DNA of 64,000 nt from an uncultured bacterium (GCA_943788175.1 CALSPG010000002.1:1-64000), one strand, 5' to 3'. Counted from the first letter of the stretch, positions 8,616 to 46,465 are shown. Numbers and translations are program-made. The notes: generated by a model not told the origin, from the sequence alone.

Positions 8616-9650
8616 TTAATTATTTAAATGAAATGATTGTAAAACTTTGCCATCCATATTTTTTAACATTAAAGAAAATGTATTTTTTACTCCATCAAAA
8701 TAAATAGCACCATAATTTTCTTCAGTAAAAGTGGCTCCAATTCTTAAGGGGCCGGCCTCCTCAGAGTTTGGATAAGATACATTAAGACTACTTGATGTCA
8801 TTTCTGAAATTAAATTTCCTTGTTTAGTTTTTAATTGATAAAACCCTCCTCTATGCCGGTCGCCTGAAAGTATAATCGTGTGCTCAGAATTCGAGTTATC
8901 AATAAGTTCAATCATTCGACCCCTCTCCAATGGCAGGTTATACCAAGATTCCCAACCGTGCCCAATAGGTAAGAACTGTATAGATGATATGATCACTCTA
9001 TAATCAACCGGATTCTCCATTTTTTTCCTAAGCCATCGCCACTGTTCAGATCCTAATATAGTAAGAGAGCTGTCTTTATTTGGTAGGTAACGCTCTTTAC
9101 CAGCAGCTCCTTTTTTATCAGTTGGTTTTAGAGCATCTCTAAATGTTCTAGTATCAAGAAAAATAAACTGAATTTTTTTTCCTTTAAAATCTCTCATTAC
9201 TTCATGATATAAACCGCTTCTATTTCGTCTCGGGTCATTCGATGGAATAGTCCAAAAGTCTAAGAACAACTCTTTTGATTTTTCTTTGTATAAATATTCC
9301 TTGCCACCATCATTTAACCCATAGTCATGATCATCCCAAATTGCTTCAAAAGGAAAGTCAATTTTCATCTTGTTAAAATTTTGTTTTTGGCGATGATAGG
9401 CTGATGCAAGCTCTTCAAGACCTTCCGCTTTACTATCCCCATAGACATTATCACCAATCATTAAGAAAAGATCAAAATCCTCAGATTTTATGGCATTAAA
9501 GATTGGCATTGGTTTGTCTTGACTCAAGCAAGACCCGAACCCAATTCTCATTTGATTTGGGTTATCAAACATATTGTTAATTTTAGTGGGTTTTTGTGAG
9601 GAGCAACCCCAAATATTGAATATTAAAAGAATAAATAAATATTTTTTCAT
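8616..9650 (-). CDS. PhoD-like alkaline phosphatase, lipoprotein
   Basis: FGSC, GDNVYGD, WDDHD, LDTR, SGDRH motifs; MKKYLFI signal peptide. Confidence 0.9.
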   Translation of the reverse strand: MKKYLFILLIFNIWGCSSQKPTKINNMFDNPNQMRIGFGSCLSQDKPMPIFNAIKSEDFDLFLMIGDNVYGDSKAEGLEELASAYHRQKQNFNKMKIDFPFEAIWDDHDYGLNDGGKEYLYKEKSKELFLDFWTIPSNDPRRNRSGLYHEVMRDFKGKKIQFIFLDTRTFRDALKPTDKKGAAGKERYLPNKDSSLTILGSEQWRWLRKKMENPVDYRVIISSIQFLPIGHGWESWYNLPLERGRMIELIDNSNSEHTIILSGDRHRGGFYQLKTKQGNLISEMTSSSLNVSYPNSEEAGPLRIGATFTEENYGAIYFDGVKNTFSLMLKNMDGKVLQSFHLNN

Positions 9651-9737
9651 AGTTTAAAAAATACCAACTATTTATAAAAAACAGTAATTAAATAATGCAA
9701 AAAGGCTAATTGCAGATACTAAAACAACTTCAATAAT

Positions 9738-10763
9738 TCAATTCAGATTATATGTTCTGCCCTCTAAAGTTCTTCGGAAAAATCGTTTGTTTTTAATAAT
9801 TAACAATTCTCCATATTTTCCTTTTTTAATACTTGAGTCTACACCAATGATTTTATTATCATATAACTGAACAACCTTTTTATTTGATGTATGCCCCACA
9901 ACAATATGATTGGCATCAACCAACTTTAATATATTTGAAATATCTGTGTCTATTAATACTCCTTCAAAATAACCACGATACCAAATCAAACTATTACTAC
10001 CAAAATACATATTATACAGATCTTTTAATTGCCCATTTTTTCTAAAATTTCTTAGTTCTTTAAGCCGCGGAATGGACTTTCTCATTGTATTATTTATTTT
10101 ATTGATATTAAAACCTTCCTGAGAAATAAAATCTTCGGATATACCTCCATGCGTAAAAAGGATATCGTTTATTTTAACAATCGTTGACTTTGAACGTAAC
10201 CATCTACCAATAATGGTATTATCACCATACAATTGATCATATTCTAAATTCAACAATTTTGAGACAATATTGTATTTTTCATGGATATATCGTAAGTCGT
10301 TATAAAGGACCATATACTCATGATTACCGAGCAGATAATGGACCCGTCCACCAGCATTTTTCGCTTGCATTTCAAGTTCATAAATAAACCAAAGTATCTC
10401 ATTGACTTTATCTCCTCTATCAAAAATGTCACCAACAATCACAAAATGACCTTTACCAAAGCTCCAATTAAGATTTTTGTCAATTATTTTATTATTTTGT
10501 AATAATTCAATCAACAAATCATATTGACCATGAATATCACTCAATGCAGCAATTTTTTTCACTCGGTTAAAAGAAGACTTTCCCGCGTCGTAAAGTGTGT
10601 CATACGAGCTTGCTTTTAAGTTTTTTAAAATGACCTTACTACTGATTATGTTTTTTTCAATAAGTTTATTTTTTTCGATAAAAATATAAGGTCCATCAGA
10701 AATAGTTTGTTCTTTTCCGAAACATAAACCAATAAATAAAAGAATGAATAGATATTTTTTCAT
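9738..10763 (-). CDS. Secreted calcineurin-like metallophosphoesterase
   Basis: DIHG, GDIFDRG, GNHE, HGG, GHT motifs; MKKYLFI signal peptide. Confidence 0.9.
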   Translation of the reverse strand: MKKYLFILLFIGLCFGKEQTISDGPYIFIEKNKLIEKNIISSKVILKNLKASSYDTLYDAGKSSFNRVKKIAALSDIHGQYDLLIELLQNNKIIDKNLNWSFGKGHFVIVGDIFDRGDKVNEILWFIYELEMQAKNAGGRVHYLLGNHEYMVLYNDLRYIHEKYNIVSKLLNLEYDQLYGDNTIIGRWLRSKSTIVKINDILFTHGGISEDFISQEGFNINKINNTMRKSIPRLKELRNFRKNGQLKDLYNMYFGSNSLIWYRGYFEGVLIDTDISNILKLVDANHIVVGHTSNKKVVQLYDNKIIGVDSSIKKGKYGELLIIKNKRFFRRTLEGRTYNLN

Positions 10764-14279: not shown

Positions 14280-15449
14280 TTAGAACGATGAAAAAATGAT
14301 TCTATCAGAGAGTATAATTAAATCAAAAACATTCGTCTGACCGTCAGAGTTCAAATCTGAATAATAGCTATCAAAATTAAAATGATCATCGTTCATAATA
14401 ATGGATACTACATTCGATATATCACTAATATTCAAAAAACCATCATTATTTATATCTCCTAATTGATGCGGATATATGACCTCAAATAAAAATCCATATG
14501 CATCTTCTTTAATAAGGGTAAAGTATTCATTTGGACCATTAATCCAGGTCCCATTTGAAGTCCCCCAATATTCATGAGGCAAGTTTTCTTCATAATAAAA
14601 CGCATGATCAATACTTAAAGAATTAAGCCGATCATGGATGAGATTTGAACCATAAACAAATGGTAGAAAAATGTCAACGGTAAAAGGATAGCCTGAATTA
14701 AAAGGAACTACACCATCAGATGTCCCATGAAACATAATTAAAGGAGTATTATCCTCTTCATTAATCCAGTTTAAATCAGCTATTGCTCCCCAACAACTCA
14801 CAACAGCATTGGGTTTACTATAATGATCAAAATCATTTCCTTCACAGTCAATACAGCCCAAGTCTGGATCACTGCCTGCCCCATAGGTTGACTCAGGCCT
14901 TTCAGCTTCATCTGTATAGCTTAAATGAAGAGCAATAAAAGAACCGGCACTAGAACCCCAAACAAATATATTATCATAGTCTATACCGTAATCTTCATGG
15001 TACTCGCGTAGATACCTTATAGCAGCACTGGCATCTTGCACTCCTCGATAAGCAGCTCTTTCTGCACTATAACTACTCAATACATTTAACCCAAGCCTGT
15101 AGGTTAAACTAACAGCGACGTAACCCCTTTTTGCAGATGCGATGGATAGAGATACCATATCATCAACCTCATTATTACCTGTATAGAAAGCTCCTGGATG
15201 AAGAAAAATAATTACAGGCCTGTTAGTTGCTGTATCTTCAACAGCTTCATAAACGTCCATAGTCATATCCATGTCTATCGTGTTCCATTCAAAGCCAAAT
15301 ATAAAAGGTAAATCAGGCGCATTACCGTAGACTACATCTTCTGTCTTTCTTATTTCACTGAAAATCTCATTTTTGTAACGTGGTTGTGCTGTTATTTGAG
15401 AAAAGGTAAAAATAATTTGAATGAATATAATTGCACTATTCTTCTTCAT
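14280..15449 (-). CDS. Secreted alpha/beta-hydrolase (carboxylesterase) with C-terminal dockerin-like domain
   Basis: GSSAG nucleophile, HGTSD; GDINNDG..DLNSDG dockerin repeats. Confidence 0.85.
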   Translation of the reverse strand: MKKNSAIIFIQIIFTFSQITAQPRYKNEIFSEIRKTEDVVYGNAPDLPFIFGFEWNTIDMDMTMDVYEAVEDTATNRPVIIFLHPGAFYTGNNEVDDMVSLSIASAKRGYVAVSLTYRLGLNVLSSYSAERAAYRGVQDASAAIRYLREYHEDYGIDYDNIFVWGSSAGSFIALHLSYTDEAERPESTYGAGSDPDLGCIDCEGNDFDHYSKPNAVVSCWGAIADLNWINEEDNTPLIMFHGTSDGVVPFNSGYPFTVDIFLPFVYGSNLIHDRLNSLSIDHAFYYEENLPHEYWGTSNGTWINGPNEYFTLIKEDAYGFLFEVIYPHQLGDINNDGFLNISDISNVVSIIMNDDHFNFDSYYSDLNSDGQTNVFDLIILSDRIIFSSF

Positions 15450-16876
15450 TACTTTACCAAAACCATCTTTCTACTTTGTCTAAAACCACCTACTTGAATT
15501 GTATAAATATATAAACCCGCAGATACTGGCTGGCCTGTATTATTCGTTGCATCCCAAACTATTGACCTATTTCCTGCTTCCTGATTAGTATTGATTAATG
15601 ACTTTATAATAGTACCCTTAACATCATATATATTAATATTTACAAGCTCATCATATGGTAAGTTATAACGTATTATCGTGCTAGGATTAAATGGGTTGGG
15701 ATAGTTTTGATGCATCAAAAAACTAGTAGGTAATAATTCCTTATCATTACTTAATTGATAACTAAAGTTGTAAGAGTCTGATAATGTTGGGCAACCATTT
15801 GAAAAGAAAACCTCCACAGTATATTCACCGCTTACAATCGGAACATAGCTTATATTATTTGCGTTTGTTATAACGCTATCATTTAAATACCATTGATACC
15901 CTATACCAATAGCTGTTGCAATTAAAACGCCCTCATCATCCTCTATACTTGCTACGGGATTTTGCAGATGAAACTGATTGTATGCTATCCTATTTGAATT
16001 AACTAGCGAGTCTTGAAATAATGCTTGCTGCTCGCAATCATCCTTGAGAGTGAAATCAAGCCATGAATTTAGAAAATCAAAAGTGACCTGTTGTTGCTCA
16101 ACCCTCGATATTGAAATTCCATTTGATGATGCGCTTTCGCCAAGGTCACAAAAGAAGTTAGGATTTCCAAAATAACAATGCCCTCCACCTAAAATTGAAA
16201 TAAATGTTTTATAATTTGAGTTAAGATTGTTGTATATAGGCAATTGATGAACGCCTTGAGGCGTTACACCATCTTGACTCCCTGATATAATTAGAGCAGG
16301 AATAGTTACGTTTAGTGCAGAAGCAATTGACGAGACACCATTAGATGAAGACTCAGCCACGGCTAATCCAATAATTGTTTTAAGTTGATTATTATTATTT
16401 ACGCAAAGAGAATCTGCGGCTAAAAAGGAAGCTCCCCCACCCATAGAGTGTCCCATTAAAGCTGTATTATTATTAACTAAATTATAAATCGGCGATGAAT
16501 TGCTATCACCTTCTTCTTGAATTTTAGTCACCAAGAATTGCAAATCCCATCCAAACTGTTGATGATCTGTATTGAGACCGCTTTCTGTTCTTGGAAATAC
16601 CATTATATACCCCTTAGGAACGAATTCATCCCATAAGTTTTGGTACGTATCCCAATTAATTAGAAAACCGTGACCAAACAAAATAATTGGGAATTGACCA
16701 TCCAGAGATAGCATATCTTCGCCTTGCAAAGGAACAGGATAATAAATTTCCGTTAAGATATTTCTATTTGACCTGCTTGAGTCTTGAAATGTTTTACTGT
16801 AATTGTCGACACCATATTGGGCAGCAGCAAAAGTAAAAAAAAATGAAAATATGATTAATTTTATTAAATGATTCAA
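15449..16876 (-). CDS. Secreted chlorophyllase/cutinase-like alpha/beta-hydrolase with T9SS/FlgD-Ig tail
   Basis: GHGF, GHSMGGG, GGGH; C-terminal QNYPNPFNP...KMVLVK. Confidence 0.8.
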   Translation of the reverse strand: MNHLIKLIIFSFFFTFAAAQYGVDNYSKTFQDSSRSNRNILTEIYYPVPLQGEDMLSLDGQFPIILFGHGFLINWDTYQNLWDEFVPKGYIMVFPRTESGLNTDHQQFGWDLQFLVTKIQEEGDSNSSPIYNLVNNNTALMGHSMGGGASFLAADSLCVNNNNQLKTIIGLAVAESSSNGVSSIASALNVTIPALIISGSQDGVTPQGVHQLPIYNNLNSNYKTFISILGGGHCYFGNPNFFCDLGESASSNGISISRVEQQQVTFDFLNSWLDFTLKDDCEQQALFQDSLVNSNRIAYNQFHLQNPVASIEDDEGVLIATAIGIGYQWYLNDSVITNANNISYVPIVSGEYTVEVFFSNGCPTLSDSYNFSYQLSNDKELLPTSFLMHQNYPNPFNPSTIIRYNLPYDELVNINIYDVKGTIIKSLINTNQEAGNRSIVWDATNNTGQPVSAGLYIYTIQVGGFRQSRKMVLVK

Positions 16877-16941
16877 TTGCAGCTTACTTTTTCAAAATCC
16901 CAAGGGGCGACGAATAAAACGATGAATAAATATTTTTTCAT
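16873..16941 (-). repeat. Signal-peptide element, orphan stub (MKKYLFIVLFVAPWDFEKVSCN*)
   Basis: Nucleotide match to the element consensus; its stop overlaps the TTG start of the next gene. Confidence 0.85.
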
Positions 16942-19040: not shown

Positions 19041-19115
19041 CTATTGTACATAATTGATAAAAATTTTATATAATTGATATAAAAATTTAGCTCTCAGAAG
19101 ACAAACAATAAACAC

Positions 19116-19146
19116 ACCAATAAAACGATGAATAGATATGTTTAAT
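19116..19146 (-). repeat. Signal-peptide element, degenerate orphan stub
   Basis: + strand accaataaaacgatgaatagatat, about 22 bp past the stop of a CTD gene. Confidence 0.8.
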
Positions 19147-19168: not shown

Positions 19169-22100
19169 CTATTTCAATAGCACCATTTTCTTGGCTTGCC
19201 TGAACTCCTCTGTCTGTATCGTATATAAATATAATCCTGCTGGTACGGGCTCGTTTTTATTGTTGGTAGCATTCCATTGGATTGTCTTAAACCCTGCGGT
19301 TTGCGAGCCATTTACAAGCGTTTTAACTATTCTGCCCATCATATCATAAATAGTAATATTAACTAAGCCATCATTTGGTAAATCATAACGCAACAAGGTG
19401 ATAGGATTAAAAGGGTTTGGATAGTTTTGATGAAGGCTGAATGCCATCGGCATATCAAGTTCTTGAGCAGATAAAACATCTTCTCCCAATAGTGACACTT
19501 GAAAAGTAAGAGTATCTCCAAAAATACAATATTCTGGCTGATTTTGACAATTTAATGCTTCAGCATAAGCTATGAATGTTACTAAAGTATCAAAGTTAAT
19601 CGTCGAGTCCGCAAGGATATCAAATGGTACCATATTACAACTATTACCAGGCATACCAAAAAACCAAAAATGGTCATTAGAGATTGATACTAAATTAGTA
19701 TCTGCTTCTAAGACTAAACCTGGATACCAACCATGAGCAATATCCGAATTATTACAAAAATCCATTTCTATTTGCAATGATTCACCGGGGTTCCAATCAT
19801 TATCATCTCCACTTATTTGAATAGATGGTTCGCTTATAGAAAAATTCCAAGAAGGGATACAAGCTAAGGTATCTTGCTCACCAATGTGATCTTCAATACA
19901 TGATGGATAAGGTGGGCAGAGTTGATTGTTTGAAATATCAAAAGTAACCCCTGGGATACTCATTGAACAAATATTTTCAGGGATTCCTCCTGAAAATTGA
20001 TTAAAGGACAAATCTAATATTTCTATATAATTTAATTGATCCCATAATTCTATGGGTATTAGCCCTGAGAGTTGATTAGAGTCCAACGCTAAACCCCAAA
20101 GATTATTTAGGTTACCAATTTCAGCTGGAATGGAACCAGTGAATTGATTTTGTGAAAAATTCATTGAAACAACATTTATTAAGTTGCCTATTCCAGAAGA
20201 AATTTCTCCGCTAAGTAGATTACGTGAGACATCTAAGCCATTAGTCCAACCAAGAGGTCCCGCTCCAGATGAATGCCCCCCTCTCAAATTAATCAAATTG
20301 TAAATTTCTGAAGGGAGCTCTCCAGATAAGCTATTCTCATTTAAATGAAGTATACTGAGGCTAGTTAGGTTTCCAATTTCAGGTGGAATTGCACCAGTGA
20401 GCTGATTAGAATGTAAAGTTAGACTCTCTAAATTCGACAGGTTTCCTATCTCTGAAGGAATAGAACCAGTTAATCCACTAAACACTATACTTAAACTTTT
20501 TAAATTTATTAAGTTTCCAATTTCGGGTGGTATTGAACCCGAGAATCCGCAAAATTGACATGACAATGTATCTAAATTTATTAAATTACCTATTTGCGCA
20601 GGAATTACGCCTAGATCTAAAATACCAGAAACGGGATTACCAGAAAGAGTTATGTTTGTTGTCTCGTCAATCGAATAACACTCACCCCATAATTCGACAC
20701 CAACAGTTCCATCATTTGCAATACAAGACTCTACTGAAATAAAAGCAGATTCAAAGGCGCCCATATCAGGTTTAATGCCAATATATGAATCAGGACTTAA
20801 ATTTACCAGAGTATCAGGCACAGGACCTGGGAGCATCTGATTCGATAGGTCAACAACCAAAAAATTTGTTCCTGCGTCAATACAAGGTGAACTGTCCGAA
20901 AGGTTGAAATTAGTATCACCTTCAACAAATAAAGGATCAGTGTATAAATTATTAATGCCAATGGGTATATCAATATTTGAATAATATGGAAAAATCATGC
21001 CATCTGCGTTTGTCGGTTGGTTATTCCAAAAAATTGAATTAACAACAATAGCGTAGTCGCCCATTGAACCTGCACTAATACCTCCTCCTCCATCAACTGC
21101 CGAATTATTAACAACAGTGACGTTCTTCATAATCGAAGATATAATAGCTCCTGATAACGAAATACCTCCGCCATAAGTCGTAGCGCTATTGTTCGAAATG
21201 ACAGAGTTTTCAATATTCAAAGTCGTTGGTATGGAAGAGGCTGAGCCTTCGCCTTCGATGTATATTCCTGCCCCATTACGAGCTTGATTATTATCTACTT
21301 TGATATTTTTTAACAAAATATCACCGACCATCTTTAAGCTTATTCCGCCACCTTTTCCAGTTGAATACCCATTCTGAATAGTAAGATTACTGATCTCAAT
21401 TGGGTGGGCGGTTTCGTCCGAATTATCAATTACTTTGCCTACTCCTTCTCCATCAATGACAGTTGAATCCATGTGCGAACCTATTAGTCTAATATTATTT
21501 GCCATAGACCAGTTAATATTTTCAAAATACAATCCTGCCGATACAAAAATAGTATCATTGTCATTTGCAGAGTCAACACCGTTCTGAATCGTAGCAAAAG
21601 GATTCTGTTCTGATCCATCGCCAGTATTATCTGAGCCATCAATAGATATATACCATGTAGATTTAGACTCTTCTTCAAACCATATTCTGCGGACAAGAGT
21701 TGAGTCTACAACATATGGATTTGGTTTATTTTCTTGATATCCAGCTATAGCCAGAGTACGATTTAATTCATTAGCATCTACTGGGTCTTGCCTATGCCAA
21801 TCATATAATGTTTCTTTTTGTATGTTAAAAAAGTTTGTATCAGCAACATCATTATACATTGTATAAAAATAAAACATGCTCCTAGCTATATTTCCTTTAA
21901 CATCCTCTCTTGGTTCAAATACTCCATTACCGTTATCTACTTCTGAAAACTCATCAATAAATTCATTTGGTATGCTAGTTTCATAATAGTCAAATCTCCA
22001 CCACTTATCGGTATCATTATCATCAATATCTGCAAAATGTTTGTTTCCTCGAGAAGAATTAACATTTCCTCGAGCTGGATAGAGATGATGTAAATCGCTC

Positions 22101-23974: not shown

Positions 23975-24002
23975 CTATACCTTTGAACAAAAATAAAGAA
24001 CT

Positions 24003-32814: not shown

Positions 32815-32832
32815 ATTCTTTTTTAAGAAGTT

Positions 32833-33576: not shown

Positions 33577-33632
33577 TAGTTCAAAATAACCATTCTCTTA
33601 CTTTGTGTAAACACACATGATTGAATGATATA

Positions 33633-34100: not shown

Positions 34101-34128
34101 TAACTCATTTTTTCTGGAAAAACTCCCC

Positions 34129-34176
34129 TTAAACTACCCCAACCAATAGAATTATGAATAAATATTTTTTCATAAT
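34129..34176 (-). repeat. Signal-peptide element, orphan stub (MKKYLFIILLVGVV*) with 26-bp near-perfect palindrome
   Basis: attatgaataaat|attttttcataat at 34151-34176. Confidence 0.9.
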
Positions 34177-34571
34177 CTCTCCAATGTCATTAAATCCTTG
34201 TAAGTTGGTAGAGGTTCGCCATTTTCATTTGTCCATATTATTTGACTAATCATAGTTAATTCATCGCCACTTAATTCATATTCCCAATTAACTAAATCTC
34301 TTATGAATATTGAATCATTTGTTGAATTATATGAGAAATCATCTCCACTTATAGAAACTGAATCTTTACTAAAACGAATTATTAAACCTATTCTACTTTG
34401 ATGCGATAACTCTTTGGTTGAATCAAGTATATTTAACAAATCATTATCTAACATTTCTGAAATATTATACTCAGTGTATAAATAGCCCCAATTACCTATA
34501 ATAGTATTTTCACTTCTTTCATCACAACTCCAAACCCCAACCAATAAAACGATGAATAGATATTTTTTCAT
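34170..34571 (-). CDS. Putative lipoprotein (lipocalin-like)
   Basis: Element-derived signal peptide with VWSC lipobox; IIGNW motif. Confidence 0.65.
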   Translation of the reverse strand: MKKYLFIVLLVGVWSCDERSENTIIGNWGYLYTEYNISEMLDNDLLNILDSTKELSHQSRIGLIIRFSKDSVSISGDDFSYNSTNDSIFIRDLVNWEYELSGDELTMISQIIWTNENGEPLPTYKDLMTLERL

Positions 34572-34589
34572 ATTTTTTTTTAAGAAGTT

Positions 34590-35334
34590 TTAATACCTAG
34601 TTAAGTTATCTATAACGAATAATAGTGATGAGTTGTGACCCACTCTTATACCATTATAGTCTTTTGGGAGTAATATACGTTTACCATTAATAATTTCAAC
34701 TTTTTGCGGATCTTGCTTTAAATGTTTAAAAATTCCATCTTGATGCTTTATTGTTGCCCATTGAATATATTTAACATTTGGTGCAATAGTATATTTATCC
34801 TTTTTAGGGTTCCGACAATCTTTATGATTTAAATTATCATTTATCCTTGCTAATCCTGTTGCAATCGCATGTGTTTTTATTGGGAATTCACTATCCCAAC
34901 TTTCAGATAAAAGCGTTGTAATTAATCCGCCAAAGCTATGACCGATAATTACTACGGATTTAAGATCTTCATTTAATTTTATCAATGTTTTTAACTTTTT
35001 TAACATACTATCATGGATAGTTAACGGACACTCATTCCAATCATACCTATAAAACCATATAGGTACGCCACTTTTTGATAAATTTAAAATTGGTTCAACC
35101 CATTCAAAACCTTTAGTGTCCCATTTTTCAGGATAGTAGCCGTGAACTAATATTATTCCAATTGTAGAATCAATATAATCAAAACCTTTAATTTTATGAA
35201 TGCCTACTGATCTATTTATTAAATATTCATCATAATTGGATTTGTTTGTAGATAACTTTGACAATAAAATCGTTTTTTTGATCATGCCCAAAACAAACCC
35301 CAACCAATAAAATGATGAATAGAGATTTTTTCAT
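34590..35334 (-). pseudogene. Secreted alpha/beta-hydrolase (copy B), +1 frameshift in an A-run after the signal peptide
   Basis: Near-identical to 32833..33576; T7 versus T6 run at about 35273-35279. Confidence 0.85.
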
Positions 35335-37787
35335 TACTTCAATAACACCATCTTCTTTGTCTGCCTGAACTCCCCTGCTTGTATCGTATATAGATATAAT
35401 CCAGCTGATAGTGGCTCATTCCTATCATTGGTGGCATTCCATTGGACTGACTTAAAACCCGCACTTTGAGAGCCATTTACAAGCGTTTTAACTGCCCTTC
35501 CAATCATATCATAGATAGTGATATTGACTAACCCATCTTCTGGTAAATCATATCGTAAAGATGTGACTGGGTTGAATGGGTTGGGGTAGTTTTGATGAAG
35601 TGTAAATAACTCAGGTATTAATTTTTCATTTATTATTGATACTTGAGTCTGATCATCTTTAATACACCTAACGCAATTTCCATCGGCACGTTCACGTGTT
35701 CCCATTTGCGCATTATTGATTCCGATGCCCATCACACGAGATGCGTCTCCATCCACAGTACTTGTACGGTATCCTGCAAATGTACCCACATTTCCTATTT
35801 GTCCACTCATACGAGATCTTGCACCAGTTAGCGTCAATTTTAATGGTGAATTAAATGCGCCATCAGAATCATTAGAACTCCAGGTTAACCTTTCTTCTTC
35901 AAATTCATTTTCTGTGGGTAATCTAAAACCTTCAGGGCAAGGATTATTAATACCGAACAAGCCCTGCCATAAACTATCGTTTGGTGGAAATCGCCAATCT
36001 GAATCCGCTAAAATAAAATATGAATGACCAGCTGTATCTGAACTTGATGTAGTATTTATGGTTGATGAAGTTCTTTCTTCATGTCCATCTGAAGACCTAC
36101 CCCATTGATATAAGCTACCAAAAGAAGCTGTATCAGTAGTTGAAGTAGCTACTTGAATAGCTCCTAAATTTCTATCCATCCATGTTCTACCAGTTATAGG
36201 ATTATATACTGTCTGTATTAAAGAATTACAATTAGTGGTGTCTTGCTCCCCTATAATTTCTTCAATGCATTCTAAGTATGGTGGACAAAATTGATTATTA
36301 CCCAATATCAAATATCCACTAAGAAAAGGATTCCAATTACAAATATCCTCAGGCATTCCAGATAATTGATTACCACCTAAAAAAAACAAATTTAGATTTG
36401 TTATATTCCCCATTGAGGTTGGAATATCTCCACTCAATTGATTGGAACTAAGAAATAAACTGCTTACATTAATTAGGTTTCCTATTTCAGAAGGGATTTC
36501 ACCAGTTAATTGATTATACTCAAGAGATAAATATGTAAGGTTTATTAGGTTCCCTATAGACGATGGAATCTCACCTGATAACTGATTTATACCTAATGAT
36601 AATGTATTTAAATTAGTTAGATTACCTATTTCTGGTGGAATCACACCTGTAATTTCATTTGTGTGTAAGTACAAGGATGTAAGATTAATTAGTTGACCAA
36701 TTTCTGGACTTATTTCACCTTCTACAACCTGCCCACTGCTCATATCTTCCAAACCTATATGAGTAGTCTCATCAATTGAATAACATCCAGATGGCATACA
36801 ACCATTACTGTGATAAATATTAACCCAATCATTACAATCTCCCCAGCCCAAATCAACTTCACCTTCATCACAAACAATTGCATCAAAAATACTTGATAAG
36901 GGGTATCTAAAAACTCCACTTGAATGTGTAGCCGCGATTATATAGTTCTCACTTATTTCAAGATCAAAAATGGTAAGGTCTGACAGTCCACTATTCAAAT
37001 CTGTCCAACTATCTCCATTGTCCATGGTATAGTACACACCAGACCCTGTTGATCCTGCAACCAATAAATCATCATTGTAACCAAACCCTCTAAAAGCAGC
37101 ACTGGCAATACCATTATCTAACAACTCCCAGTTTGCTCCAAAATTTGTTGATCTAAAAACTCCAGTACCTATCTCACCACCAGCAAAAAGAATATTACCA
37201 TAGCTTTGAATAGCTCTGAAAGTTGAAGATGAGACTCCATTCGTTAGTAAAGTCCAATTCTCTCCCCAGTCTATGCTCTTATATAAACCATTTCCATTAG
37301 TCCCAACAAAAAGTGTGTCTCCGATATTTGTCACACACCTAACATCTGTCCCTGTAAGTCCTGCGGGATCCCAATTCTCCGCCATATCAGATGAAATAGA
37401 GACACCAAATGGACCAACATGAACCAAACGTTCATTAACACTTAAAATCCCATGAGATAATAAACTCCCTAACCCATTACTCTTGGATAACCATGTCTCT
37501 CCATTATCTTCTGTTCTAAAAACACCTTGAGAAGTACAATTATATATATACAAACTGTCATGGGTAAATCCTCTTGTCGGACCACTAGAGTCGTTACCAT
37601 TGTTTGATAAAGTATAGGTCATACCTTCATCAATAGAAACATAAGCACCCGTTTCTCCTCCCGCAAAATGATATTCTCCTTTTGACCCAAGGGATTGCAT
37701 ATCAAGGTTCTCAGTTCCTGATGCCTGTTCCCATTGCCCAAAAAGTTGAGTAATAAATATTAAGATTATCGTTAAAATAAATTTCAT
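35334..37787 (-). CDS. Modular secreted protein: BNR/Asp-box propeller + LRR + FISUMP (Fib_succ_major-like) + T9SS/FlgD-Ig tail
   Basis: SxDxGxxW repeats; IPSEIGNL repeats; TWMDRNL..GSLYQW..CPEGFRLPT..VRCIKD; CTD. Confidence 0.85.
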   Translation of the reverse strand: MKFILTIILIFITQLFGQWEQASGTENLDMQSLGSKGEYHFAGGETGAYVSIDEGMTYTLSNNGNDSSGPTRGFTHDSLYIYNCTSQGVFRTEDNGETWLSKSNGLGSLLSHGILSVNERLVHVGPFGVSISSDMAENWDPAGLTGTDVRCVTNIGDTLFVGTNGNGLYKSIDWGENWTLLTNGVSSSTFRAIQSYGNILFAGGEIGTGVFRSTNFGANWELLDNGIASAAFRGFGYNDDLLVAGSTGSGVYYTMDNGDSWTDLNSGLSDLTIFDLEISENYIIAATHSSGVFRYPLSSIFDAIVCDEGEVDLGWGDCNDWVNIYHSNGCMPSGCYSIDETTHIGLEDMSSGQVVEGEISPEIGQLINLTSLYLHTNEITGVIPPEIGNLTNLNTLSLGINQLSGEIPSSIGNLINLTYLSLEYNQLTGEIPSEIGNLINVSSLFLSSNQLSGDIPTSMGNITNLNLFFLGGNQLSGMPEDICNWNPFLSGYLILGNNQFCPPYLECIEEIIGEQDTTNCNSLIQTVYNPITGRTWMDRNLGAIQVATSTTDTASFGSLYQWGRSSDGHEERTSSTINTTSSSDTAGHSYFILADSDWRFPPNDSLWQGLFGINNPCPEGFRLPTENEFEEERLTWSSNDSDGAFNSPLKLTLTGARSRMSGQIGNVGTFAGYRTSTVDGDASRVMGIGINNAQMGTRERADGNCVRCIKDDQTQVSIINEKLIPELFTLHQNYPNPFNPVTSLRYDLPEDGLVNITIYDMIGRAVKTLVNGSQSAGFKSVQWNATNDRNEPLSAGLYLYTIQAGEFRQTKKMVLLK

Positions 37788-37894
37788 ACTTTAAAGCCTC
37801 GTAGAATAGAAATTATAATGTTGGGAAAGGGGTAAAATTATTAAACTAATAGTAATTCTCTCTTCTCTAATTCTTTTTCATAATCATATCCAAA

Positions 37895-37945
37895 TCTACC
37901 CATCATATCGTAAATAGTGATATTAATTAAACCATCTTCTGGTAG
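37895..37945 (-). pseudogene. Internal fragment of the T9SS/FlgD-Ig tail (PEDGLINITIYDMMGR)
   Basis: ctacccatcatatcgtaaatagtgatattaattaaaccatcttctggta matches intact copies. Confidence 0.75.
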
Positions 37946-39928: not shown

Positions 39929-40034
39929 ATCAAAAATTTAACAAATAATGTTGAATCTGTGTCCCTTAAAAGTGTGTCCATCATTTTTGTGTCCATCATT
40001 TGCTAAATATTGATTAAGGATGACAAAGGATGAC

Positions 40035-40066
40035 AAAAGAAAACCCCCCGAATAACCGAGGGGTTT
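40035..40066 (-). terminator. Hairpin/terminator downstream of a tRNA 3' fragment
   Basis: aaacccc...ggggttt with A-run. Confidence 0.7.
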
Positions 40067-40095
40067 AATGAGAGATGTGTGGTATTATTCTCTAT

Positions 40096-40137
40096 TACGC
40101 CCTACAAGTTTCTAACTTGTATGCTTATGCTCCGGAG
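40096..40137 (-). repeat. Degenerate tRNA-Arg(CCG) 3' fragment (att site 2)
   Basis: tacgccctacaagtttctaacttgtatgcttatgctccggag aligns with 51439-51480. Confidence 0.8.
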
Positions 40138-40167
40138 TTATAATACTAATCGCTGTAAGTGCAATTA

Positions 40168-41275
40168 TTATGCGCGATAGTCACTAACCATACTTACCGT
40201 GTCCCGGAAAGCAGTGTCCCGAATTGATAATTTAGTAGAATATTGATATTGTTTTGCTAATAAAGGAAAATCTTGAGCAACCCTTTTAAGATTCATATTA
40301 GCATAAACTTCAGTGGTAGTTACAGAACTATGCCCCATGATAAGCTTCAAATCATAGATAGGCATGCCCTTAATTAAGCTTCTAACGGCAAATGTGTGTC
40401 TAAGCGAGTGAAAGTGCTTCTTTGAATTAATACCGATCGATTTAAGAGCATTTTTTAAACATCTTTGATAAATGATTGCCTTGATCTTTAATCGTAGAGC
40501 CATACCCTTCAATTAACCACTCTTTATAATTGATAAATATTTTTCTTAAAGAACTGTCCAATTCAATATTTCTACTAGATCCTCCTTTAGACTCCTCGCT
40601 TATATCTATCCAGTCTCCTTCAATGACAGATATAAAAGGTTCTCTTAAACGCATACCAGTTTCAAGGTATAGTCTAAATACATCCTTATAAAATGGATCT
40701 AGCCAATCAAGAGCCATAATTTCTTCAAATTCTTTCTCCGTGATGTATATTGGATCTTTCTTTCGGACTTTTAATTGTTCTATAAAAGGTATTTTATTTA
40801 TTCGGTCATTTTTCAATAAATAACCAAACATAGTTTTTATAGTACGGAGATGAATATTGATGGTATTAATACTTAAACCTTTAGATTTTAAAAAATCTAT
40901 AAATCCTATTATATTGCTAGTTACAATTTCATTAACTGCTTTATTTCCACTTAGATATTTTATTAAATAGTCTGTACCTTGTTTGTTTAAAGTGAGTGTA
41001 TTTTTAGTAGTATTTCTACTAGCTAACCACTCATCTGAGGCTTCTTTTAACGTATATTTTTTTACTTTGATCTTGATTTGATTTGATAGCCAGGGAAAAG
41101 AGAATGCTACACCTGATTTAATACCATCCTCAACTGCGTTAACTTCTGTTAGTCTTTCATAGGCAACCGCCATAGATGAGGTTCTTAGAGGTATTAACTT
41201 TTCTTTTTCATCGCCTTTTATTTGCCACCTTACTCGTGCATAAAACTTTCCTTTTCGATCTCTTAACCTAGCCAT
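40168..41275 (-). pseudogene. Phage-type tyrosine integrase split by a 1-nt frameshift near 40450
   Basis: SINTINIHLRTIK, TGMRLRE, then HSLRHTFA, MGHSSVTTTEVY in the next frame. Confidence 0.9.
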
Positions 41276-41321
41276 ATTAATTATACTTCCGATGTCTACA
41301 TTTGTTCATTAAAATTAGTTT

Positions 41322-41537
41322 ATGAATGATAAACAAAAATGGTTTATAGTAATATTAGTTGGATGTATAGTCACCCTTTTAACTGCATTAACAGAGACTG
41401 ATTGGAGATTTCTGATTGATGTAACATTATTAGATGGAGGAAGTGAATATCACTACTCAATTAATTGGGTAGGTTGTTTATTAGTGGGTATTTCATTCTC
41501 ATCCATTACTGGATTCTTTCTTTTTAAAGATAAATAA
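41322..41537 (+). CDS. Small membrane protein
   Basis: Two TM segments. Confidence 0.55.
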   Translation: MNDKQKWFIVILVGCIVTLLTALTETDWRFLIDVTLLDGGSEYHYSINWVGCLLVGISFSSITGFFLFKDK

Positions 41538-41636
41538 TTAGACATGGACAGACGCTCTTTCATTACTATAAATGGTAACTAATAAGATACCCTAGTTTGT
41601 AAGGGACTAAATAACTAAAGATAGCCATTTACACCC

Positions 41637-42179
41637 TTAATTTTTAGGGAGGTTGTTTAATATAGGGTTTAATCCATTAGGGGGCTTAGTACTATTAGGA
41701 CTATCTTTTGTAAGGGTGTTATTTTTCTTTTTAAAACGAGTTCCCCTCCCAACTATATAATCTTTTATCTTTGGAATCTCATGCTTCCAATTTTCCTTTG
41801 GAAACCTTTTCCAGCGACATTCACTTTCTCTAACTCCTTCAATCCATAGAAGTTTGTACTTATTCATGTCTCCTCTTGCCATACCACCGCGATAAGTAAC
41901 TTTAATGAGTCCTGCCTCAATTAGCTCATTTCTAGCCCTTATATACGTTGCAGAAGCTCCTAATCCATTTGCTTTGAACTCTCTTTCGGTGAATGAGACT
42001 TTTCCATTGTTCGTGTAAGAAAAATTCTTCTTCTTCCTTGATCCAGTAAACTTTAACTCAGAATAAAAGCACCACATCAAATTTTTAGCTGCCGGCGACA
42101 ATGCTTGGTAAGCCTTAGACCAGTATAGCCTATTTGTTAACATAAACGTAAACCGTTTGTCAGGTACTGGTTTCATCAT
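41637..42179 (-). CDS. Putative HTH replication-initiator-like protein
   Basis: SKAYQALSPAAK..NNG..GASATYIRARNELIEAGLIKVT pattern; directly after the xis-like gene. Confidence 0.5.
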   Translation of the reverse strand: MMKPVPDKRFTFMLTNRLYWSKAYQALSPAAKNLMWCFYSELKFTGSRKKKNFSYTNNGKVSFTEREFKANGLGASATYIRARNELIEAGLIKVTYRGGMARGDMNKYKLLWIEGVRESECRWKRFPKENWKHEIPKIKDYIVGRGTRFKKKNNTLTKDSPNSTKPPNGLNPILNNLPKN

Positions 42180-42191
42180 GAAATTATAACC

Positions 42192-42380
42192 TTACCCGTT
42201 GAGCCACTCATCAACTCTAGATCTTTTGATAAGAATACGACCAGTCTCTTTAGATGCTTTAAGATTACCTCTATCAATATATCTACGGATTGTTGCAGTT
42301 GATAACTTAGAGTATTTGACCACTTCACCTATAGTCATCCATTCATCATTATGAATGTTATTTAGTATGTTTTTCATCAT
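42192..42380 (-). CDS. Excisionase-like HTH (HTH_17/MerR-like) protein
   Basis: WMTIGEVVKYSKLSTATIRRYIDRGNLKASK..GRILIKRS.VDEWL. Confidence 0.85.
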   Translation of the reverse strand: MMKNILNNIHNDEWMTIGEVVKYSKLSTATIRRYIDRGNLKASKETGRILIKRSRVDEWLNG

Positions 42381-42490
42381 TTTCTCCTATATGAATTAAT
42401 ATGATAGGAGAAAACTATATATGAGCACCTGCTTGTTATTAGGGTGGGCTAATGGAGCTTACTTTGAAATTATACGACCGTATGAACTAT

Positions 42491-43123
42491 CTATCCCCAG
42501 CCTAAATGCTTGCCAAAGTTCTCAAAATACCTCACTGCTCTTAATTGAAATTGCTTTCTAATTAAATCTTTTTGTTCGTCTTCACCGTTGTATGATTTAC
42601 CACTTTCTAGAGTTTTACCATAATGATCCAATTTATATTCAACGAAAAGATCATATGCCATATCTATCTGCCTAGCTGGAATAAGACCATATTCTTTCAT
42701 TTGCCAGAAGAAAGGACACAAAGCTAAACGTAACATTATATTGTGACCTGCTCTTGGGATTTTTTCTAGTTTTATTTTATCAATAAGAACTTTATATAAA
42801 CCTCTAAAAAATATCTTATCATCAACAGTTATTTTCTCTAATGTTTTTTTTTGACCTAAAATAGTTTCTAACTGTTTTATTTCTAGTCTTTTATTGTGTC
42901 TGAGGTGGTTGATTGTTTCTATTTCAAGTTCAGATCTATCGTGCAAGTTCATTTTCATATAAAATATTGCTTTATTTAAGCTATGGGATAACTTCTTGCT
43001 TTGCTCAATATCGAAGCCATGCTCAACAAAAAATCTCATTAGGTTTTCTTTTTCTAATTTGTATTCCTCATTCACTTTTGAGCGAAGAATCTCCATGAAG
43101 TCTCTTGATTGTGTCTTCTTCAT
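42491..43123 (-). CDS. Hypothetical protein
   Basis: 210-aa ORF. Confidence 0.65.
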   Translation of the reverse strand: MKKTQSRDFMEILRSKVNEEYKLEKENLMRFFVEHGFDIEQSKKLSHSLNKAIFYMKMNLHDRSELEIETINHLRHNKRLEIKQLETILGQKKTLEKITVDDKIFFRGLYKVLIDKIKLEKIPRAGHNIMLRLALCPFFWQMKEYGLIPARQIDMAYDLFVEYKLDHYGKTLESGKSYNGEDEQKDLIRKQFQLRAVRYFENFGKHLGWG

Positions 43124-43506
43124 ATATAGATTATCTAGATATACACATTAGTAATACACCTAGAGCAATTCTAATTAGGAGGGTAAAATTCAAACTTGAT
43201 CCCTCCGCTATATCGATTTATCCAGCTTCTCGGAGTATTTTTTCTAACGTCATTGTTTTGATTTTTAGTAGTATGACTAGACGCTTGAAGGTCAGTATCC
43301 CCAGGGATTTGTAAGCTTACAGATTTAAATAAAAATGATATCAAAAGGATACTCAAAAACATTATAGTAACATGTGATTCTTTTATTTGCATACAACTAG
43401 TACTTCAACAAACTGATAAGTGTTCCAAAATCATTTTTGTAACTACATGATGTATTGTATTTCAACTCAATTGTATAAATTGGAGCAATTAATAAAGGAG
43501 TTAATT

Positions 43507-43770
43507 ATGAAATCTTATATACAAGGAATGATAACAGGTGGTGTTTTAGTTTTTGCTGCGATTGTTTTTATGGGAGCAAGAGGTGGTAACAATGGTAAAT
43601 ATCAAGTAGCAATCTCGGGAGAAGATATAATCATACTAGATACGAGTAATGGAATTGGTTTTAGGAGATTTGAGTATGGAAACGATTTGGCTCACGAAAA
43701 ATTTACTTATGAAAGTTTTAATGCCTATTTTTTGAAGCAGTTGGATGAAGCTAGAAAGAAAGGTTATTAA
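43507..43770 (+). CDS. Hypothetical exported protein
   Basis: AAGGAG RBS before MKSYIQGMITGG. Confidence 0.65.
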   Translation: MKSYIQGMITGGVLVFAAIVFMGARGGNNGKYQVAISGEDIIILDTSNGIGFRRFEYGNDLAHEKFTYESFNAYFLKQLDEARKKGY

Positions 43771-43821
43771 TTAATACTGCAGAACTAAATAGGTATCCAA
43801 CCTAGCATAAGGAAAAAATAA

Positions 43822-44367
43822 ATGGGCATTTTAAAAAATTTATTTTCATCTGATCCAAAACAAGCAAAAACAGTTGCTAAGAAAATAAATATAATTTTTA
43901 ATCATTTTTCTTATTTACTGAGAAAAGAGAAACCAGATACAATTAAAAAATTTCTTTTTGAACCCGTTAACCTTTCTATAATAAATACTCTAGTTTCAAT
44001 TGGGTATAACCAGATTGATGGAAATAATAACATGAATTCATTTTGGACTGAGAATGAGATGACAAAAAAAGATGCATCAGGCAGACACACTCCTTATGGG
44101 TTCACAAACTTAGTTTTTAGTAGATTAAAAATTAAGAGGATTAGTGTGGATGCTATGTGGAGGGAGTACTGTTATTGGAGAGTTGATAATGAAAGGGATA
44201 AGTTTCTACATAATTGGGGTGTTGGCTTAGGCATGATAATTTATGAAATTGAGGTAGCAGATTATGGTTGGGATTCTGATTATCTAGATGGTTTATTTAA
44301 TAGACATTTAGAGTTTATTAATAGCGAAGGTTACATAAATTATAAAATTAGAGTACTATCAATTTAA
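43822..44367 (+). CDS. Hypothetical protein
   Basis: 181-aa ORF, AAGGA RBS. Confidence 0.65.
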   Translation: MGILKNLFSSDPKQAKTVAKKINIIFNHFSYLLRKEKPDTIKKFLFEPVNLSIINTLVSIGYNQIDGNNNMNSFWTENEMTKKDASGRHTPYGFTNLVFSRLKIKRISVDAMWREYCYWRVDNERDKFLHNWGVGLGMIIYEIEVADYGWDSDYLDGLFNRHLEFINSEGYINYKIRVLSI

Positions 44368-45146
44368 TTTGTCATCAAATTTCCATTGATGTCATATTCA
44401 AGCCTATATACAGTTTCAGAACCTTTTCTTATGAAGCTAAGTTGTTTATTTCCATTTTTATAAAATTGATCAAGCTGTGTATGATTGAAATCATAGGACA
44501 TTAACATTTCAATTTCTTTTTCTCCTGTTTCATAATAACTTATTGTTTTAAAATATTTTTGGTCTGGTATAGTATGAGCCGTGATCTCTGTTACCCCATA
44601 TTCGGTAATCTTTTTAAGCATACCGCTTTCATACCAATCATAATGTAATCCAATATTTTCATATTCTCTTTCATCATTAGATGGTTTTTTTAATAATATT
44701 TCACCACCATATTTACTAGGCTCACCGTTATCATGAAACTCAAGCTTAACATAATAATAAGAAGCTCTAGAAAACTGAGGATCATTTTTCTCAAATTTTT
44801 TAGAGAAGATGTAATTTCCATGGTTTGACTTTATTTCATGCGGTTTATAAACTATCCAAGATTCATCTGTCGGCTTTCCATTAATGTAATCACCTCTAAT
44901 TAAAAGTTTATTTCCTTCTAAATAAAAAAGATATTCACCATTTCTAACATTATCATTGTATCTGGTTTTTGACCTTAAATCACCATTAGAGTAATAAGTT
45001 TTAACACCTACTAAAACCTCATCAAATCCCTTTCCATCATAATAATTAATTTTTTTTGGTGTACCATCCTCCCATCTTGTAATGATCTTTTCTGTTTGCC
45101 CAAAACAAACTCCGACCAATAAAACGATTAATAGATATTTTTTCAT
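44364..45146 (-). CDS. Secreted MORN-variant/YwqK-like repeat protein
   Basis: YYSNG, WYESG, YYETG, FYKNG repeats; element-derived signal peptide. Confidence 0.75.
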   Translation of the reverse strand: MKKYLLIVLLVGVCFGQTEKIITRWEDGTPKKINYYDGKGFDEVLVGVKTYYSNGDLRSKTRYNDNVRNGEYLFYLEGNKLLIRGDYINGKPTDESWIVYKPHEIKSNHGNYIFSKKFEKNDPQFSRASYYYVKLEFHDNGEPSKYGGEILLKKPSNDEREYENIGLHYDWYESGMLKKITEYGVTEITAHTIPDQKYFKTISYYETGEKEIEMLMSYDFNHTQLDQFYKNGNKQLSFIRKGSETVYRLEYDINGNLMTN

Positions 45147-46465
45147 TATCCTATCTTTGCACTTTTAGTTCTATTACACGATTCACACAGTAATTGAATA
45201 TTTCTAACAGTGTCTGCTCCACCTTTAGAATGAGGAATTATATGATCATATTCTAATTTTTCATTAATTCCACATTCAATACATTTACCTTCATCTCTTC
45301 TCCAAACTTCTCTCTGCACTGTTTTAGGTATTGGTTTTCTTTTAGATTGATTGTCACTTTTTTTTCTTTCATCTGCAAAAACGCAAATGTAGTTATCTTC
45401 AATATTTGTTATTTCATGCCCAGGATAATAAAAAACATTTTTAGGATCATAATTTTTAGGATCAAGTTGATGCCTCAAAGCATCTTTTTTTAATATTCCA
45501 GTCTCATCATACCTTTCGTCGTATTCAATAATTTTTTTAATATAATGATTAAGATCTTTGTAATGATAAATATCATAATATTCATTTTCTGCATTGTAAT
45601 ATTCAGTAGAAAGGGAAATTCCTTGTTCTAAGATTTCGAAATATCTGATTATACTGTCATGGATTTCATCTTTATCTGATAAATCTAGAGTACTTATTTT
45701 TGACCAAGATTTTTTCATACATTTAGTACATTGGATTTCTATTCCTGTGCCAGAAGAATTAGTATCTAGTAAATTAAAATATTCCGTGTTGCATTTTTTG
45801 CAATTATCAAATTTATAATTTTCTTGGATTAGACTTTTTATTTTTGGCTCAAGTATTTCAATCTCTGTTATAAATGCTTTCATTTTAGAAGAATAACTAA
45901 AAACGATATCATTGCTTTTTAACCAATTATCATAATATTCTTTTCTCTCCTCCAAAATATTTTTATAATAAAGAAGATATTCATTATTTTTCTCATCCTG
46001 ATCAAATTTTTGTTTCGGTTTACTAAAAGGATTAATCCTTTCAAAATCATTATGATTAAAGACAGCAAGTAAAATAAACCAAATAGATGAAAAAATTAGT
46101 ACCCCAGCAATCCTAAACGATTTTAATTGAATACCTATGCTAGTGTCAAATGCCCCTTCGCCAGAATAATACCAAAAATTTAAATATATAATACTAAAGC
46201 AAGCTGAAAGAGCTAAAAACAAAAATGTTATATAAAAAGAAGTATTAAGACTATGATACTTGCTTACAACCTTATCTTCACTATCACCATTACTAATAGA
46301 GTTAAATTTTTCTATAATTATATATGACAAAAATATAATTAATGCTGGAATCGATATCGAGATTAAACCAGAAAGAAACCAGTCTGATATATTAGCTCCT
46401 TTAAACCATCCATAATATGGATACATTAAAAAGATTATTATAATAATAATTAAAGCTTCTCTCAT
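45146..46465 (-). CDS. Membrane-anchored protein with Zn-ribbon and C-terminal HNH endonuclease
   Basis: VWRRDEGKCIECG..LEYDHIIPHSKGG..NIQLLCESCNRTK; 4 N-terminal TMs. Confidence 0.85.
   Translation of the reverse strand: MREALIIIIIIFLMYPYYGWFKGANISDWFLSGLISISIPALIIFLSYIIIEKFNSISNGDSEDKVVSKYHSLNTSFYITFLFLALSACFSIIYLNFWYYSGEGAFDTSIGIQLKSFRIAGVLIFSSIWFILLAVFNHNDFERINPFSKPKQKFDQDEKNNEYLLYYKNILEERKEYYDNWLKSNDIVFSYSSKMKAFITEIEILEPKIKSLIQENYKFDNCKKCNTEYFNLLDTNSSGTGIEIQCTKCMKKSWSKISTLDLSDKDEIHDSIIRYFEILEQGISLSTEYYNAENEYYDIYHYKDLNHYIKKIIEYDERYDETGILKKDALRHQLDPKNYDPKNVFYYPGHEITNIEDNYICVFADERKKSDNQSKRKPIPKTVQREVWRRDEGKCIECGINEKLEYDHIIPHSKGGADTVRNIQLLCESCNRTKSAKIG

Follow-up and report, generated by a model that had tools for sequence, protein, structure and literature searches.

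A start codon and predicted signal peptide, conserved as nucleotide sequence, at gene-exchange breakpoints in flexible islands of one Ca. Marinimicrobia genus

The stretch of DNA analysed here, called the window, comprises 64,000 nucleotides from an uncultured bacterium (GCA_943788175.1 CALSPG010000002.1:1-64000) and carries a co-oriented gene array in which a short element encoding a start codon and a predicted signal peptide recurs. The element has a 39-bp core, ATG followed by MKKYLFIVLLVGV, which a CFGQ or WSC tail extends to about 51 bp. A first-pass annotation of the window had described a recurring minus-strand sequence of this kind, and it is real: the 38-mer given there has four matches with up to three mismatches (33576, 34571, 35334 and 45146, all on the minus strand) and none in 100 shuffles. 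A nucleotide profile made from 15 copies and run on the 2.27-Mb, 12-contig draft genome gave 21 matches at E<0.1, confined to three places. Thirteen lie on the contig of the window, every one of them on the minus strand (9650, 10763, 16941, 19146, 26720, 28327, 30578, 32814, 33576, 34173, 34571, 35334 and 45146), six at C8:160-10112 and two on contig C7. All thirteen had been listed in the annotation; a further listed position, 39928, keeps the first 16 nucleotides only (E 3.6), and three sites listed as weak copies (11430, 22429 and 27527) give no profile match at E<=10, although a 65-bp junction is common to 22429 and 26720.

Seven of the claimed copies head open reading frames (ORFs) of 133 to 1086 amino acids in frame and the others are stubs, as had been described. 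The features given below lie on the minus strand. The reference copy, with a WSC lipobox tail (34518-34571; no mismatches to the 38-mer, E 2.6e-14), heads a 133-amino-acid protein (34170-34571), a lipoprotein as predicted from its lipobox, the mature part of which has no Pfam family; 49 bp of this copy are 100% identical to C8:2141-2189. The copy at 33521-33576 (E 1e-13) heads a lipase-like protein of 247 amino acids (32833-33576), and the one at 28273-28327 (E 1.8e-11) a lamin-tail-domain protein of 266 amino acids (27527-28327; LTD and Por_Secre_tail) with a C-terminal domain (CTD) of the type IX secretion system (T9SS). This protein (MKIYIFIVLLVGV) matches TIGR04183 at 46.3 bits (cut-off 23). 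At 45092-45146 (E 2.4e-14) the element overlaps the stop codon of an HNH-endonuclease gene and heads a MORN-like protein of 260 amino acids. A diverged copy at 10709-10763 (E 2.3e-8) heads a metallophosphatase (341 amino acids) and a weak relative at 9596-9650 (E 0.099) a PhoD-like phosphatase (344 amino acids). Another weak relative is found in the junction at 22395-22459, which includes the start of an endonuclease I-LRR-CTD gene (MKNYLS..., 1086 amino acids) and is 81.5% identical over 65 bp to 26688-26752. Of the domain names proposed earlier, PhoD, Metallophos and LTD were recovered by Pfam, a lipase-like (PGAP1) and a MORN_2 domain weakly so, and 'lipocalin-like' had no family match.

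The stubs encode 3 to 34 amino acids (11430, 16941, 26720, 27527, 30578, 32814, 34173, 35334 and 39928). The longest belongs to the copy at 35279-35334 (E 1.2e-14), which overlaps, as TAATG, the stop codon of a leucine-rich repeat (LRR) CTD gene (35334-37787) and heads a lipase-like paralogue. An A-run longer by one base than in the 33576 copy shifts the frame of this paralogue, leaving a 34-amino-acid stub and the remainder in the ORF 34590-35303. A stub of 25 amino acids follows the lipase-like gene (32766-32814, E 8.7e-9), one of 22 lies ahead of the PETase-like CTD ORF 15449-16876 (16888-16941, E 1.1e-9), one of 12 has the left context GATGAGGAAGAATAA (26669-26720, E 2e-4), and one of five overlaps the CTD stop codon of the PETase-like gene 30578-32461 (30533-30578, E 1.2e-3). 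The profile match at 34123-34173, a stub of 14 amino acids, overlaps the preceding stop codon as ATGA and is followed by a gene for a cytoplasmic GNAT acetyltransferase (33633-34100) and then by a 56-bp CTD remnant (33577-33632). A degenerate copy without ATG (19096-19146, E 4e-5) is located just past the CTD stop codon of the gene 19169-22429. The stop/start overlaps TAATG, ATGA and TAAATG are as the annotation had them. Exactly one gene does lie between successive copies from 35334 to 30578, a regularity that is owed partly to an 859-bp tandem duplication (32776-33633 and 34533-35391, 92.5% identity).

To the left of the commonest junction lies the coding end of a T9SS type A C-terminal sorting domain (...QTKKMVLLK*, Por_Secre_tail), represented in the window by 35334-35600. 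Paralogous ends at 27527-27790, 30578-30840, 19169-19435 and 15449-15712 have a mutual identity of 77-82%, and genes upstream of many junctions have the tail of T9SS type A cargo. An orphan remnant of such an end (24543-24739, 70-74% to the CTD ends) is found downstream of the GHL10 gene and aligns to 19169-19343, 30589-30766 and 35346-35515. Further orphan remnants with no gene attached lie beside signal-peptide stubs, at 33577-33632 and 37893-37945.

To derive the anatomy of the element, we drew 231 copies from this genome, its congeners and metagenome contigs; they represent 211 unique contexts, of which 191 have full flanks. Over the 191 full-span copies, conservation per position is 45-56% at -1 and 93-100% from +0, the A of the ATG, to +38; thereafter the copies split into different tails, and similarity is gone by about +51. 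The tails read CFG-Q, GFG-Q or VFG-Q, which resemble a signal peptidase I (SPase-I) site, or WS-C or WG-C, which form a lipobox, so the unit is exactly a start codon plus a predicted signal peptide. The translation has the features of a Sec signal peptide (MKK, YLFIVLLVGV, then CFG-Q or WS-C), and the peptide itself matched no Pfam or NCBIfam model. The left side is variable. In 41 of the 211 contexts the T9SS sorting domain end overlaps the ATG as TAATG, in 24 a TTGTAGATTTG motif ends 6-8 nucleotides upstream of the ATG (for example L041 6397, L055 1281 and L096 535), nine have the GATGAGGAAGAATAA stretch, and the remaining 137 are assorted. We take the TTGTAGATTTG motif to resemble the -7 promoter box of Bacteroidota, TAnnTTTG; if it is a promoter box, the genes behind it would have nearly leaderless mRNAs.

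Several observations support the view that the element is copied DNA and not a signal peptide reached by convergence. The consensus uses the rare codons CTA, TTC, ATC, TTG and GGG, each of which accounts for 12-16% of its set of synonymous codons in this genome's long ORFs, and in the 83 copies outside the scan pattern these codons were retained in 71-84% of the cases in which the amino acid is kept. Among 378 signal-peptide-like ORFs, the element forms the only group of more than two members with the first 54 nucleotides at least 80% alike. The mature proteins behind it are diverse: 111 of at least 100 amino acids fall into 52 clusters, and the Pfam names denote unrelated folds. Orthologues in other species are identical to this genome at 36-42% of fourfold degenerate sites (G004 62/154, G005 68/163, G007 128/355), whereas the cores agree with this genome's consensus at 25/27, 7/7 and 8/8 such sites, respectively; the core values are upper bounds since the copies were found by similarity. 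A general signal of T9SS cargo can be ruled out: among 77 ORFs with a T9SS tail in this genome only the 28327 gene carries the element (read from the list; the regular expression flagged none).

The element appears to be restricted to one genus of Ca. Marinimicrobia (SAR406), uncultured ocean bacteria, as judged from the records searched. The 38-mer was found with up to three mismatches in five of eight other congeners and in none of 32 genomes from outside the genus but within its family and order; of the remaining three congeners, one has a single copy of a shorter pattern and two (95% and 81% complete) lack it. The titles of public records holding the pattern name Ca. Marinimicrobia or Neomarinimicrobiota. 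One 3.6-kb contig with an exact match (L022) is filed under an Alphaproteobacteria metagenome-assembled genome, probably by a binning error. In addition, 116 marine metagenome stretches contain the pattern, and no contig of the viral collection searched does, which speaks for that collection only. Co-oriented arrays are likewise present in other species; in one of them they consist for the most part of intact genes with the order signal, cargo, T9SS tail, linked by TAATG.

Comparison with near-identical contigs revealed where the gene content changes. Contig L135 (99.5-99.8% identical to the window) passes straight from the 33576 side into the 28327 side, and the crossover lies between +8 and +35, in a 27-bp tract that is identical in the two copies. 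The missing segment (28328-33526), a 5,249-bp indel with these two copies as its arms, carries five genes or stubs; its contents are lipase-like copy 2, stub 32814, the PETase-like CTD gene, stub 30578, an esterase and a 2OG-Fe dioxygenase. Contig L091 (98.7%) shares exactly 30579-33577 with the window, that is, one ATG to the next. In contigs with 99% identity the homology stops at 35285 (L118), 35335 (L123) and 39928 (L112), and contig L084 has an intact 417-amino-acid CTD protein in the place of the 34173 stub, the GNAT gene and the 56-bp tail remnant, its homology to the window ending 43 nucleotides into the element. The closest congener (L015) differs by a 4.29-kb indel: the block 26720-22429 is bounded by the copies at 26720 and 22429, and a single 37-bp stretch of L015 (10825-10861) matches both 26738-26702 and 22447-22411 of the window. 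At congener locus L016, homology to the window begins 1 bp before the ATG of the 10763 copy. These comparisons show that recombination between copies deletes, duplicates and reshuffles whole genes, with the start codon and the signal kept.

The same pattern emerged from counts made without selection. Where contigs with at least 95% identity are aligned to the window, seven of the 14 internal block ends fall inside the element or no more than 1 bp from it (3.1% expected), and in an all-against-all comparison at >=97% this was true, within 5 bp, for 23 of 67 distinct breakpoints (2.3% expected). Several of the breakpoints elsewhere fall at a second hot spot, 37.9-38.0 kb, beside a truncated T9SS tail. 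Right and left sides are freely re-assorted: a CTD end precedes 31 copies whose right sides are of 26 kinds, and the promoter-like motif precedes 23 copies whose right sides are of 21 kinds. Logan contigs from four runs of four studies cover the arrangement of the window piecewise at >=99%, and in all four runs they end inside the elements flanking 28328-33526, as expected at branch points. Their joints have short sides (20-36 letters) that lie in repeats, and we draw nothing from them. The word depth over 28396-33043 is about half that of the neighbours in the four runs, contig depth being a weak measure; since it cannot rank parts, the lower depth at 28.4-33.0 kb is only compatible with the 5.2-kb indel being polymorphic or common in nature.

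The first-pass annotation had named three outcomes that would speak against it, namely indel breakpoints unrelated to the element, an even scatter over ordinary secreted genes, and synonymous conservation no higher than codon bias predicts. The breakpoints of strains and species fall inside the element, the copies are clustered in three places of the genome and form the sole multi-member cluster among the 378 ORFs, and both the rare codons and the fourfold sites are conserved far above the codon-bias expectation; thus none of the three refuted the proposal. Its mechanism fared less well, as set out below, and its interpretation as a whole is partly supported.

The arrays lie in flexible islands linked to tRNA and integrase genes. 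In the window, an integrase island (40031-51490, minus strand) is flanked by fragments of about 120-160 bp that resemble the 3' half of a tRNA (40031-40188 and 51365-51490), the T-arm GGTTCGAATCC being present in one and degenerate in the other; GGGACAC repeats are found nearby. The island contains a split tyrosine integrase, a 180-amino-acid protein, the MORN gene with its element, the HNH gene and a 1393-amino-acid CTD protein. The integrase (40168-41275; Phage_int_SAM_5 and Phage_integrase) consists of the overlapping ORFs 40168-40512 and 40442-41275; it is the only recombinase in the window and adjoins the tRNA-like attachment (att) fragments, not the element. Contigs with 96-99% identity diverge at these fragments beside the integrase. 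ARAGORN found no intact tRNA and Rfam no family in the window, and no att fragments were found at the junctions within 9.6-39.9 kb. Homologues of the integrase occur in five of 135 element-bearing loci, too few, and in loci too short, to decide; one of them, L136, repeats the order of the window: integrase, att-like fragment, element gene. Contig C8 carries a similar island, in which a repeat of about 160 bp begins inside tRNA-Pro and is present in three copies after the integrase (L148 8351-8522, 9922-10080 and 12333-12500), separating units of one to three genes. The end of C7 (L150: tRNA-His, tRNA-Pro and the same genes) is 99.5% identical to C8:8351-10595, an arrangement that points either to a single integration site present in the bin both occupied and empty, or to tandem accretion. 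In congener L016, the orthologue of the 10763 gene has as its immediate neighbours the orthologues of genes at 58.8-64 kb in the window; therefore about 47 kb of the window (about 10.8-57.9 kb) is an island relative to that species.

Two genes for PET-hydrolase-like (PF12740) alpha/beta hydrolases with T9SS sorting tails (15449-16876 and 30578-32461) are part of the window's island, and genes for an S9 peptidase, BD-FAE esterases, GHL10 and GH3 are located near them. The PhoD-like phosphatase (8616-9650) and the metallophosphatase (9738-10763) carry relatives of the element, and an inorganic pyrophosphatase on C8 (L148 10112-10729), an enzyme that is usually cytoplasmic, carries its lipoprotein form. 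These three would make up a set of exported phosphorus-scavenging enzymes.

Stubs are frequent, with fewer than 60 codons following 72 of the 197 copies that could be judged; some of those close to the 60-codon limit may be real small lipoproteins. Their closeness to the consensus is 0.937, compared with 0.955 for intact copies (p = 0.19). Stubs look like scars: they adjoin orphan CTD remnants, and one is a frameshifted paralogue. Stub 32814 has a counterpart after the orthologue of the lipase-like gene in a congener (L015 9937). The LRR gene 35334-37787 has lost most of the upstream tail and core in this species and has another signal (MKFILT...); its orthologue in a congener keeps tail and core, and homology resumes at TTTTGGGCAA.

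We consider it probable, with moderate confidence, that the element is a portable, nucleotide-conserved module of start codon and predicted Sec signal that serves as a homology anchor for recombination in flexible islands. The copies head many unrelated exported proteins and share 27-50 bp of identity with one another, and many are preceded by the approximately 260-bp conserved T9SS C-terminal domain of the upstream gene, so that they could act as such anchors. Recombination would be of the RecA type or occur by slippage between direct repeats, and gene conversion among copies together with exchange of island genes within the genus may keep the copies alike. Stubs and orphan CTD remnants would then be scars of replacement and decay and not working sites. 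A dedicated recombinase would not be needed.

A number of points weigh against this reading. With 27-50 bp, the homologous tracts are close to the shortest that RecA-type exchange can use. The crossover has been mapped to the base in one case only, metagenome contigs could be chimeric at repeats, 44 of the 67 breakpoints lie elsewhere, and the 23 at the element are not independent events. Breakpoints at gene boundaries are partly expected anyway, because events that break genes are purged. The copies were gathered by nucleotide similarity, and decayed ones are missed; the conservation of stubs fits a role at the DNA level as well as it fits young scars. Recombination within a genome alone does not explain why cores agree at fourfold sites between species with saturated orthologues. 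To account for this agreement, gene flow or selection acting on the DNA or the RNA would have to be invoked. In the loci at hand, a small sample, no near-identical cargo common to different species was found, and recent transfer of whole cassettes between species was rejected on this ground as the cause of the identical cores.

The alternative that survives best, which we still think unlikely, attributes the element to ordinary biology: a favoured signal peptide would be kept because selection acts on its amino acid sequence, on slowly translated rare codons that serve Sec targeting, or on a regulatory target shared by the 5' ends of the mRNAs. The element would then have no role in recombination, and the island would be a simple mosaic with breakpoints between genes. 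The element is indeed exactly one functional unit, from the ATG to the predicted cleavage site, and rare codons cluster in it. In a pair of lipase-like orthologues about six of 51 element positions differ (counted by eye), with a gene identity of 88.5%, and the 44 breakpoints away from the element also agree with a mosaic. Convergence, however, cannot make 71-84% of the copies use one and the same rare codon at a given position; the L135 crossover and the 37-bp junction lie inside copies and not between genes, and breakpoints are enriched about 15-fold at the element. Moreover, stubs, which encode nothing useful, keep the sequence, and 76 of the 77 T9SS cargo ORFs of the same genome use other signal peptides.

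The cross-species synonymous conservation leaves room for selection on DNA or RNA, and a stronger version of the anchor idea builds on it: the core might be selected for recombination itself, as a dedicated joining site with a T9SS tail on its other side, serving a genus-wide cassette pool of exported genes, with either a site-specific enzyme or selected homology as the means of joining. We regard this as improbable. If true, incoming genes would at once be translated and exported, and the core would be a coding counterpart of the attC site of integrons.

Improbable in our view is a dedicated cassette system, in which the core is the site of a recombinase, either the tyrosine integrase of the island or another enzyme, that excises and inserts 'gene + core' units, so that a newly inserted gene would find a start codon and an export signal in place. 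The sharp left boundary at the ATG would fit, as would the very high nucleotide conservation including the stubs, the conservation of the core across species with saturated fourfold sites, the crossover mapped inside the core, the co-oriented arrays, the integrase homologues in five of 135 loci and the gene order of L136, which is the same as in the window. On the other hand, the element is without inverted repeat or hairpin: two copies, folded on both strands, gave -2.0 to -3.1 kcal/mol (z = -0.36 to +0.48 against 200 shuffles) and no attC-type structure. The integrase adjoins tRNA-like att fragments, and contigs diverge there and not at the core; 130 of the 135 loci, short as they are, have no homologue of it. 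The element was not found in viral contigs, no circular junction was seen (contigs are unable to reveal one), and for the CTD remnants as well as the replacement at 34173-33577 the breakpoints fall elsewhere than in the core. The first-pass annotation had likened the array to integron cassettes, with a resident junction that donates start and signal to whatever is inserted next. An integron-like site-specific system is not supported, because the element forms no hairpin and the integrase is associated with att fragments of the tRNA type. Donation by a resident junction is not supported either: every intact gene brings its own copy, and the sole mapped crossover lies inside two copies.

Mis-joins at a short repeat, creating false fusions, stubs and indels, are a highly improbable explanation: Logan contigs of all four runs do break inside elements, and the genome is a 12-contig draft in which the C7 end duplicates C8:8351-10595, but contigs with >=99% identity from four studies cover the arrangement piecewise, including a 7.9-kb piece (20376-28319) and one from 28290 to 30579 that crosses the 28327 start, the same architecture is present in the genomes of five other species and in the 116 metagenome stretches, and a second species also has the stub that follows the lipase-like gene.

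Parts of this picture are known from other systems. Phytoplasma effectors such as SAP11 and SAP54 are unrelated proteins that share a conserved signal peptide, the SVM motif (PF12113) (PMC8026896, PMC3743221). Like the element, this motif heads unrelated secreted proteins in repeat-rich regions linked to mobile elements, known as potential mobile units or sequence-variable mosaics, as far as the accessible parts of these articles go. Lineage and sequence are different, and Pfam scans of the element-bearing proteins and of the 30-amino-acid peptide gave no PF12113 match. In addition, the left neighbour of the element is often a T9SS sorting domain, and the same parts of the articles contain no statement on codon identity, stubs or breakpoints inside the motif. 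In H. pylori, RecA-dependent intragenomic recombination and gene conversion at the conserved ends of babA/babB, sabA/sabB and homA/homB result in chimeric genes and concerted evolution, according to the portions of the source at hand (PMC3960876). These Hop/Hom genes, which encode outer-membrane proteins, form one family with a variable middle, whereas genes with the element share the signal peptide only, their mature parts falling into at least 52 clusters. Recombination at conserved ends is known, and a signal-peptide element as its anchor would be a new form of it. In the literature listings searched and the passages cited here, no description of the element or of a conserved signal peptide in Marinimicrobia was found.

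Integron attC sites are non-coding imperfect palindromes that are recombined as folded single strands by IntI. Integrons and the arrays described here have in common the co-orientation, the short repeated junction between single genes and a content that varies between strains at the junctions; the element is, in contrast, coding and without a fold, and no IntI-like partner was identified. Accretion at tRNA genes, as in additive islands, resembles our case in that the arrays lie beside tRNA-3'-half-like att fragments and tyrosine integrases, and in that content differs between strains that are 96-99% identical; tandem accretion of the CIME type is seen at window 40031-51490 and at C8:8351-12500. 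It leaves the junctions within 9.6-39.9 kb unexplained, where breakpoints lie in the signal-peptide core. Orphan toxin/immunity cassettes behind cdiA and rhs are preceded by short conserved stretches that allow displaced modules to be swapped in by homologous recombination. In that case a single large protein ends in a variable C-terminal tip downstream of the conserved piece, whereas the element is an N-terminal export signal on separate genes. A shufflon or invertible segment was rejected, as no inverted copies exist: 13 of 13 copies in the window are on the minus strand, and the C8, G004 and G001 arrays each have all their copies in one orientation. A miniature inverted-repeat transposable element or another small mobile repeat was likewise rejected, since there are no inverted arms, similarity begins at the ATG and left flanks are unrelated (target duplications were not looked for).

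For practical work, the element explains why these islands assemble poorly, the 39-mer can serve as bait to recover the genus's variable pool of exported genes from metagenomes, and the predicted signal peptide offers a natural 'universal' signal for expression work. The element also bears on the question whether selection can maintain short coding repeats for the sake of recombination and not of the protein. SAR406/Marinimicrobia are abundant uncultured ocean bacteria, the secreted hydrolases of which act on organic matter. A codon-identical export module at the points of gene exchange would give their streamlined genomes a concrete route to rapid turnover of the secretome.

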